From IMG/VR virus record IMGVR_UViG_2568526086_000004, positions 1 to 36,154 of that record: DNA of 36,154 bases. One strand, 5' to 3'. Within the stretch, counting starts at the first letter, position 1. Each line of letters opens with the position of its first letter. The notes under the pieces are model-generated. The model ran no database searches, was not told where the DNA came from, and worked only from the letters and a program-made list of their open reading frames with translations. Shown here one piece after another: positions 26,542-27,219 of this stretch. The DNA comes from a virus (taxonomy: Duplodnaviria > Heunggongvirae > Uroviricota > Caudoviricetes). Both the position numbers and the translations under genes were made by a program.

Positions 26542-27219
26542 CTAGAACGTGACAGCCTTGTCAAAGCCAGAAATAATTGTATAAGAAATAGACGAGTTAT
26601 CAGCCTTGTTCACTTTGAACTTGGCACCTTTGTAAGCGATAACGTCACTTCCCTTAGAATCTACAGAAAAATCTGTTGTAAATGCTGCACGAGCCATATC
26701 GTTTGCAAATTCACGATAGGTGAACTTCATTACACCGCCTGCATTTCCATTGTATTCGATAGTCTTAACCAATGAGTTACTAACTCGACACAGCCCATCA
26801 GGAACACGTTTGATAGAAATTTCTGATGCAGTATAAGAAGTACCATTTGGCGGTGATATCTCATTTTTTGCAGCATCGTAACTAACATAATCAACATAGT
26901 TACCGATTTGCCCATAGAGATTTTTTAACGCAACAGCTTGAGGGTTATGATAATTGCGGTAAATTCCATTCCCCTCACTGCAATATGTACCAGCAGCGAT
27001 AGAAGACAATGCACCATTAGCCGCACCAAGTTCTAGTACGTCCGTTTTAAATCCAGTAGCAGATGTGATAATGGGATCGCCCATGTAGGCGGTAGCACTT
27101 TGCCCAATAGCAGGCTTCACCACTTCAATAGCAGTGATATTTCGGTTAGAAGCATGTGGCACGCAACCAGTTAGGATTACAGCAAGAGATATTGGTAACG
27201 CTACATTATTAATTTTCAT
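26542..27219 (-). CDS. Predicted lipoprotein (225 aa mature ORF), unknown function; candidate cargo
   Basis: I chose the internal start MKINNVALPISLAVILTGC, a signal peptide with an L-T-G-C lipobox; the ORF track extends to 27273. AT-rich. The soluble domain is rich in Gly, Ser, Asn and Tyr. Confidence 0.7.
   Translation of the reverse strand: MKINNVALPISLAVILTGCVPHASNRNITAIEVVKPAIGQSATAYMGDPIITSATGFKTDVLELGAANGALSSIAAGTYCSEGNGIYRNYHNPQAVALKNLYGQIGNYVDYVSYDAAKNEISPPNGTSYTASEISIKRVPDGLCRVSNSLVKTIEYNGNAGGVMKFTYREFANDMARAAFTTDFSVDSKGSDVIAYKGAKFKVNKADNSSISYTIISGFDKAVTF

Follow-up and report, generated by a model that had tools for sequence, protein, structure and literature searches.

A conserved lipoprotein gene between the SOS operon and cos of Fels-2-like P2-family prophages, with a tentative role at the cell envelope

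Background

Two lipoproteins that phages place in the outer membrane, Llp of T5 and Cor of phi80, N15 and HK022, block FhuA; T5 produces Llp early in infection. Other mobile elements carry outer-membrane lipoproteins that confer serum resistance or surface exclusion, namely lambda Bor / Iss and TraT of the F plasmid, the latter being about 240 aa long and hence similar in length to the protein considered here. In this work we analysed a gene of the Caudoviricetes record IMGVR_UViG_2568526086_000004 of IMG/VR (positions 1 to 36,154; this whole stretch of DNA, at its full length of 36,154 nt, is hereafter called the window). The window is a complete Fels-2-like P2-family prophage encoding integrase, CI, CII, the replication protein gpA, the portal protein Q, the terminase P, tail fibre, endolysin and LysB/LysC, and the gene in question, which encodes the 225-aa precursor of a predicted lipoprotein, is located between an SOS operon and the cos site. 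An earlier note, made from the letters of the sequence, had described it as accessory cargo with a terminator of its own. We read its product as an SOS-timed envelope factor that may act in the heterotypic exclusion of other phages or of bacteriocins, and we give this reading a probability of roughly one in three.

Among the described systems, Llp and Cor appear to be the most plausible functional analogy. As for these proteins, the gene encodes a non-essential phage lipoprotein predicted to be bound for the outer membrane, with an expression that seems to be tied to lytic development, as that of Llp is. The differences are, however, considerable. Scans of family models show no sequence relationship, PHROG 1353 being the only family matched and no Pfam model being hit, provided that these libraries hold models of Cor and Llp; the protein is about three times larger, its gene is away from that of the receptor-binding protein and it does not co-vary with the fibre tip; the DuoHS phage, which carries the same protein, uses an O-antigen as receptor and is not excluded at adsorption (PMC13622650).

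With Bor/Iss and TraT the gene shares the condition of a lone gene for a putative outer-membrane lipoprotein on a mobile element, but neither PF06291 nor PF05818 was matched at E <= 0.1, no relative with a solved fold was found, and expression is apparently linked to the SOS response rather than to the lysogenic or plasmid state. The same interval between A and cos holds, in P2, the lysogenic-conversion genes tin and old. These encode cytoplasmic anti-phage proteins, have their own promoter and are transcribed towards A, whereas the gene studied here encodes an exported lipoprotein of unrelated sequence, is co-directional with the SOS operon and lies directly behind a LexA-controlled tum operon of the phage 186 type. 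Finally, STM2726 of Fels-2, the DuoHS copy and PHROG 1353 represent the same protein with no difference of substance, and all of them are recorded as 'hypothetical protein' or 'unknown function'. Our subject is, in this sense, a catalogued conserved hypothetical protein, and the new part is limited to an unstudied, structurally unassigned family and to its apparent coupling to an SOS operon.

Results

The gene and its product

The lipoprotein gene is real, functional and under strong purifying selection. The ratio of nonsynonymous to synonymous substitution rates (dN/dS, Nei-Gojobori) was 0.065 against the variant whose protein is 96% identical (dS 0.24), 0.056 against the 88% variant (dS 1.05) and 0.08 between two 79% variants; overall it was between 0.04 and 0.09 in the unsaturated comparisons, with dS up to about 1, and for this reason the open reading frame (ORF) is not taken for a chance one. 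The frame was intact in all the complete copies among 57 viral contigs and 50 E. coli genomes.

The mechanical list of ORFs also contains a 243-aa form starting at the ATG at 27273, and the Fels-2 record likewise places the start of STM2726 18 codons upstream, a start that is not conserved in homologues. We favoured the 225-aa form: in an alignment of 22 sequences (alignment A1) the 21 homologues begin within a few residues of this start, with one exception carrying a 13-residue extension. An AGG is located 6 nt 5′ of the corresponding ATG, and the annotation of E. coli HS by the NCBI Prokaryotic Genome Annotation Pipeline has the same 678-nt form. The 243-aa start was rejected, its extension being unconserved and overlapping the hairpin upstream of the gene.

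The N-terminus, MK-INNVALPISLAVI-LTGC, fits the pattern of lipoproteins, that is, a positive n-region, a hydrophobic core and [LVI][ASTVI][GAS]C; here the n-region contains Lys and the core, which precedes LTGC, has a mean Kyte-Doolittle hydropathy of 2.2. The predicted acylated residue is Cys19, and G18 and C19 are invariant across alignment A1. The residue at position +2 is Val, hence without an inner-membrane retention signal. After the predicted cleavage, the mature protein would be about 207 aa long, with a mass of 22 kDa and an isoelectric point of 7.8. The GC content is 40-42% over the gene and 52-54% in the neighbouring gpA. With these data, the 225-aa reading frame, the lipoprotein signal peptide with LTGC, the AT-rich DNA and the placement between the SOS operon and cos, all pointed out in the earlier note, were borne out (see Table 1 for the LexA box and cos).

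Identity, distribution and predicted structure

STM2726 of Salmonella phage Fels-2 shares 99% identity with the protein, and the identity is 100% both with WP_000700647.1, of the prophage DuoHS of E. coli HS, and with the product found in about 24 records of Klebsiella phages. The nucleotide sequence of the gene is likewise 100% identical in at least 21 E. coli genomes, strain HS among them, as far as the matches listed are concerned. The identical protein is found in hosts of three genera, and its carriers are prophages of the clinical K. pneumoniae clones ST11, ST258, ST437 and ST512 (sequence types), of Salmonella and of commensal E. coli. Across the E. coli, Klebsiella and IMG/VR contigs in which the lipoprotein is 100% identical, gpA is 87-99% and Q 85-94% identical.

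A full-length match was obtained with PHROG 1353, a family of unknown function (E = 3.1e-105, residues 1-223 against profile positions 1-230 of 230), which was the sole PHROG match; no Pfam (E <= 0.1), NCBIfam or PADLOC model was matched, and a search of the PDB by sequence gave no relative at E <= 1. When 54 diverse relatives were compared with Pfam we obtained four weak single matches, with no model matched by more than one member and none being PF06291 or PF05818. In the literature nothing was found on STM2726, EcHS_A0921, WP_000700647, phrog_1353 or the neighbouring locus tags beyond one array paper, and the general literature on prophage lipoproteins and superinfection exclusion yielded no study of this family.

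The wider family was delimited with a profile search of 1.84 billion representative proteins, which gave at least 2,434 clusters (50% identity) with the cut-off set at E <= 1e-3, and 1,256 when it was lowered to E <= 1e-10. The length is 210-240 aa in almost every cluster, and the source names are limited to 'hypothetical protein' or 'lipoprotein'. The host spectrum is wide, with Enterobacterales, Vibrio and Acinetobacter at one end, Geobacter and a planctomycete metagenome bin at the other, and marine and sediment bacteria also represented. Among the full-length members that we retrieved, a lipobox within the first 50 residues was present in 232 of 264. None of these 232 has Asp at position +2, which is mostly Ala, Val, Ser, Thr or Ile, and 160 of them have exactly two further Cys. 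According to the established +2 rule, Asp after the lipidated Cys leads to retention in the inner membrane, and otherwise the Lol system sorts the lipoprotein to the outer membrane. The conserved lipobox and the lack of Asp at +2 therefore indicate that the family would consist of Lol-sorted outer-membrane lipoproteins. In the close subfamily of alignment A1, C80 and C144 are invariant, and this cysteine pattern suggests a disulfide-bonded extracytoplasmic domain. Conservation is highest in the C-terminal third, with consensus IEYNG..G..L.F.YREFS...AR.AFT..F..D. Y168, E170, R177, D187 and K197 also count among the invariant positions.

The AlphaFold2 model, obtained with an alignment of 22 sequences, had a mean predicted local distance difference test score of 80 and a predicted template modelling score of 0.60, with residues 28-221 ordered, 17 beta strands and no helices. 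The structure-based homology search proposed in the earlier note was carried out with this model and Foldseek, and the best E values were 0.07 in PDB and 0.018 in BFVD, with nothing below 0.01 in either; therefore the fold gives no functional lead. That nothing in the sequence assigns a function, as the same note had stated, still holds after all these searches.

Transcription of the gene

The lipoprotein gene is co-directional with a LexA box and downstream from it, and a hairpin with a U run intervenes (Table 1). This upstream hairpin has 11 pairs, a centroid energy of -16.6 kcal/mol and z = -4.1, and is followed by UUGUUUUUUG. In the variant with 88% identity it is kept via a compensatory change from C-G to U-A. 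The hairpin is probably a leaky terminator or an attenuator.

We considered as a possible promoter the sigma-70-like match TTGTCA-N18-AAAAAT and discounted it, because its -10 element overlaps the ATG and the resulting mRNA would miss the start codon. Reading by eye the stretch from the hairpin to the ATG (34 nt), we found no usable alternative promoter.

Evidence on expression comes from an array study of Salmonella TA100, a strain that carries Fels-2. After exposure to the mutagen MX, all the genes of the predicted operon STM2726-STM2727-STM2728 were up (p<0.05) by a factor between 2.6 and 14.8, the latter being the value of STM2727, and none of the other responsive operons, 54 in total with this one, had Fels-2 locus-tag numbers (PMC2225428). 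Since the gene follows a LexA box and the operon STM2726-2728 was induced by MX, we infer that attenuated read-through from the SOS promoter is the most economical model of its expression. This co-induction and the lack of a usable promoter after the upstream hairpin make transcription linked to the SOS operon more likely than an independent one.

The terminator that the earlier note assigned to the gene is not its own. A strong hairpin (z = -4.2) is indeed located about 100 nt 3′ of the stop codon, but it belongs to a conserved block flanking cos (26341..26491), and phages that lack the lipoprotein have it too, altered in the loop alone. This hairpin could terminate rightward transcription or act in packaging.

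Accessory status and the neighbourhood of cos

Collinear P2-like phages, such as Escherichia phage 500465-1, run from the stop codon of the DinI-like gene to the cos block without any lipoprotein gene. Of 5426 complete E. coli genomes, 1277 have the cos-flanking block in P2-like prophages, and 50 of these 1277 have the lipoprotein. Every one of the 48 IMG/VR loci that extend from gpA to cos shows the order gpA-orf62-DinI-lipoprotein-cos, which is also that of Fels-2 and DuoHS. The lipoprotein also diverges alongside the backbone, the variants at 79-88% going with a gpA at 82-85% identity. Fels-2-like P2-family phages have the gene as an accessory one that is fixed in place and specific to their lineage. 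Its presence or absence between collinear phages and its deviant GC content are those of a moron, an autonomous accessory gene in the sense of Hendrix and Juhala; of the promoter and terminator of its own that a moron would have, no usable promoter was found and the terminator is that of the cos arm.

The hypervariable cargo slot is a different region, from cos to Q, which is across cos from the lipoprotein gene. The cos-to-Q distance varies by 1.1-4.4 kb among IMG/VR loci. In the window the slot is filled by a set of three genes, whereas Klebsiella phage 4LV2017 has a retron there, and Fels-2 and DuoHS have single large ORFs. Of the accessory island put forward in the earlier note, the accessory condition of the gene stands, while its location in a hypervariable island does not.

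The three genes of the window encode proteins of 171, 215 and 231 aa, with a GC content of about 30-37%, and match phrog_10743, phrog_21208 and phrog_19817, all of unknown function. No credible Pfam match and no PADLOC match were obtained for them, and they are a candidate uncharacterised anti-phage system. We also considered a functional unit made of the lipoprotein and this three-gene cargo beyond cos, and rejected it, given that the two assort independently: the set occurs in 6 of the 5426 E. coli genomes, none of which is among the 50 with the lipoprotein.

Homologues in other mobile elements

To describe the neighbourhoods we used seven homologue loci, individually retrieved, and 57 IMG/VR loci; a profile search of the genome contigs with alignment A1 returned a single locus. 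The homologues travel singly, as cargo of several temperate elements unrelated to one another, and no conserved partner gene was found in the surveyed neighbourhoods. In Klebsiella, Pantoea and Citrobacter they occur in islands or prophages beside AbiC-like or OLD-family genes, the islands being bounded by serine recombinases, and one locus is near a MobA relaxase gene. In siphophage-type prophages of K. aerogenes and Providencia they occupy an accessory slot among the tail genes, beside Arc/Mnt/antirepressor (immI-like) modules, and further homologues are present in SSU5-like phage-plasmids. An adjacency to antirepressors recurs, with the Arc/Mnt/antirepressor modules in the K. aerogenes and Providencia prophages and with the Tum antirepressor operon in the Fels-2 type.

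Tail fibres and the receptor of the carrying phage

Among the window phage, DuoHS, Fels-2 and 4LV2017 the lipoprotein is 99-100% identical. The similarity of their tail fibres is limited to the N-terminal 160-200 aa; the distal parts are unrelated, save that the one of the window fibre resembles that of DuoHS. According to a 2026 preprint, the receptor of DuoHS is the O9 O-antigen, capsule-less DuoHS lysogens are heavily adsorbed by DuoHS and lysed from without, and after induction the virions are trapped on cells and debris (PMC13622650). Because an identical lipoprotein goes with unrelated fibre tips and capsule-less DuoHS lysogens adsorb DuoHS, masking of the carrying phage's own receptor is an unlikely role for it; the earlier note had named superinfection exclusion by the masking of receptors as frequent for phage lipoproteins at accessory loci.

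The fibre of the window (10522..12609, minus strand, 695 aa) aligns with that of DuoHS (583 aa) over residues 1-320 to 1-320 and again over 227-695 to 123-583. These overlapping matches imply an internal duplication of about 100 aa in the window fibre, the distal part of which is unrelated to the fibres of Fels-2 and 4LV2017.

Discussion

The envelope factor and its possible mode of action

Under the reading that we prefer, the lipoprotein would be lipidated and sorted by the Lol system to the outer membrane, with a disulfide-stabilised beta domain facing the periplasm or the cell surface. Transcription would occur mainly by read-through from the LexA-controlled promoter across the leaky hairpin, so that the protein would appear with the SOS response, as the prophage enters lytic growth, and not constitutively in a quiet lysogen. 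It might then bind a conserved component of the envelope, e.g. an outer-membrane protein used as a receptor, and this binding might alter what docks on or crosses the outer membrane, with the exclusion of other phages, tailocins and colicins coming from DNA-stressed neighbours. The action would not pass through masking of the receptor of the carrying phage. We suppose a conserved component because the protein is exported, occurs alone in many temperate elements and is identical across three host genera, and heterotypic exclusion is favoured because of the analogy with Llp and Cor and of the SOS timing.

Several observations weigh against this reading. The hairpin and its U run could terminate most of the transcripts, and the variants with 79% identity have a different upstream spacer with no such hairpin, so that regulation may differ between lineages. 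The array support is a single study of 2007, in which the gene with the 2.6-fold value is unstated (PMC2225428). PHROG and Pfam scans revealed no homology to Cor, Llp, Bor or TraT. Strong purifying selection and near-identity across genera are atypical of an arms race over receptors. In induced capsule-less DuoHS populations virions are still trapped, with no protective surface effect visible (PMC13622650). Some homologues, moreover, lie in the chromosomes of marine or environmental bacteria, where nothing in the surroundings obviously comes from a phage, and the ancestral role of the family may be a housekeeping function of the envelope.

Alternative explanations

The purifying selection and the identity across genera would suit a factor of host fitness or virulence conversion, giving serum or complement resistance as Bor, Iss and TraT do, adhesion or tolerance to envelope stress, with no role between phages. 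Being a single gene without partner, found in prophages of K. pneumoniae clones from the clinic as well as of Salmonella and commensal E. coli, and belonging to a family also found outside obvious prophages, the lipoprotein gene is compatible with such a role. We nevertheless regard it as rather unlikely: there is no similarity to Bor (PF06291) or TraT (PF05818), no usable promoter was found for a quiet lysogen, the sole expression evidence being induction after DNA damage, and the marine and sediment members argue against a role specific to animal hosts. Induction together with the antirepressor operon at the onset of lytic growth, the fixed position in the backbone and the co-divergence within the Fels-2 lineage could instead point to a helper of the lytic cycle of the phage itself, which would tune lysis, release or envelope integrity, for instance if it delayed lysis from without, acted on enzymes of the peptidoglycan or the outer membrane, or helped virions to escape. 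This appears improbable, since close and apparently complete P2-like phages do without the gene, the window has a complete set of holin, endolysin and LysB/LysC genes at another place, and the homologues are lone cargo in unrelated phages, phage-plasmids and islands.

The same timing, SOS or early lytic, fits the logic of T5 Llp, and with it a self-protection of the Llp/Cor type, in which the lipoprotein masks the receptor of its own phage and blocks superinfection by the same phage and the loss of progeny on induced cells and debris. A phage-borne, predicted outer-membrane lipoprotein with a homologue inside the tail-gene region of some siphophage prophages would be what this explanation needs. 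The 99-100% identity of the protein among four phages whose distal fibres, but for the pair of the window and DuoHS, are unrelated, the glycan nature of the DuoHS receptor with the adsorption of DuoHS to lysogens having the identical gene (PMC13622650) and the position of the gene, which in the window is not beside that of the receptor-binding protein, make it very improbable. That the gene is a selfish or nearly neutral passenger, e.g. a silent gene insulated between two terminators, can hardly be believed: hairpin terminators stand on both sides of it and we found no promoter that could convincingly be called its own, but the low dN/dS, the intact frame in every complete copy and the induction on the array (PMC2225428) are at odds with a gene devoid of current function.

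Coming back to the SOS-timed envelope factor, a broader form of this reading, which we hold to be doubtful, is that the lipoprotein is the first recognisable member of a large family spread by temperate phages, phage-plasmids and islands as a single-gene envelope exclusion factor. In Fels-2-like phages this factor would be wired to LexA and the antirepressor, and it would close the surface to phages, tailocins and colicins when DNA damage makes neighbours release them.

If the lipoprotein does act on the envelope, it would represent a third, unrelated and far more widespread family beside those of Cor, Llp and Bor, and an envelope-altering protein would be present in the prophages of epidemic Klebsiella pneumoniae clones, of Salmonella and of the model commensal E. 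coli HS. This would bear on host range in phage therapy and on the competition between prophages during treatment with SOS-inducing antibiotics. From a practical point of view, it is a well-defined single gene, identical in three genera and available in two tractable prophages, Fels-2 and DuoHS, with a confident all-beta predicted model for which no relatives are known.

Features of the locus and other observations

The features of the locus are collected in Table 1. The cos site was called from its alignment with the cos junction of P2, in which 37 of 45 positions agree, the first 13 nt of the cohesive end among them.

Table 1. Position of the lipoprotein gene and of the other features of the window
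Feature	Position	Strand	Remarks
Spanin genes	16754..17044 and 16887..17315		Adjoin endolysin gene 17312..17827
Portal gene Q	23258..24292	Opposite to lipoprotein gene
Three AT-rich genes	24372..26235	Minus	In the cos-to-Q slot
cos cohesive-end 19-mer GGCGTGGCGGGGATACGAG	26350..26368	Minus	Homologous to P2 cos GGCGAGGCGGGGAAAGCAC
Strong hairpin GGCCCGCCAG-UUCU-CUGGCGGGCU with U run	26414..26440	Minus	-23.6 kcal/mol; conserved right arm of cos
Fels-2-type segment missing in 500465-1-like phages	26492..27332	Minus	Hairpin, lipoprotein gene and about 50 nt of 3′ flank
Lipoprotein coding sequence (225-aa precursor)	26542..27219, stop codon within	Minus	STM2726 / WP_000700647.1 / PHROG 1353
Predicted signal peptide MKINNVALPISLAVILTGC	27163..27219	Minus	Type II; lipobox LTGC at residues 16-19 (nt 27163..27174)
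Sigma-70-like match TTGTCA-N18-AAAAAT	27218..27247	Minus	-10 overlaps ATG; discounted as promoter
Hairpin with U run	27243..27279	Minus	Between DinI-like and lipoprotein genes
DinI-like gene (77 aa; TumB/STM2727 type)	27333..27566	Minus	Gene 2 of the SOS operon
62-aa ORF (phrog_698; STM2728 type)	27577..27765	Minus	Gene 1 of the SOS operon
LexA box TACTGTAAATATAAACAGT	27808..27826	Minus	Perfect match to TACTGT-N8-ACAGT; between gpA and 62-aa ORF
gpA (replication gene)	27919..30360	Minus

Two other classes of small lipoproteins were considered and rejected. Spanins of the Rz1/LysC type are encoded in the lysis cassette, at 9 kb from the lipoprotein gene, and the lipoprotein is about three times larger. 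Colicin lysis proteins are lipoproteins of about 30 aa, and an analogue of these was rejected in view of the 207-aa folded domain predicted here.

The RefSeq record NC_047818.1 of Klebsiella phage 4LV2017 annotates only a 189-nt 'hypothetical protein' (10442..10630) over an intact 225-aa lipoprotein ORF (9953..10627) and also omits the 62-aa and DinI-like genes (region 9253..10900), which is a gap of annotation and not a biological difference. A second sequence resembling a LexA box, TACTGTATGTATAACCAGT, which departs from the pattern at one position, is located at 35054..35072 of the window, where the integrase ORF has its 5′ end. A 561-aa ORF (935..2620, plus strand) has a full-length match to phrog_4489 (E = 0), a family of unknown function; being outside the tail genes and near one end of the prophage, it is a possible further cargo gene.

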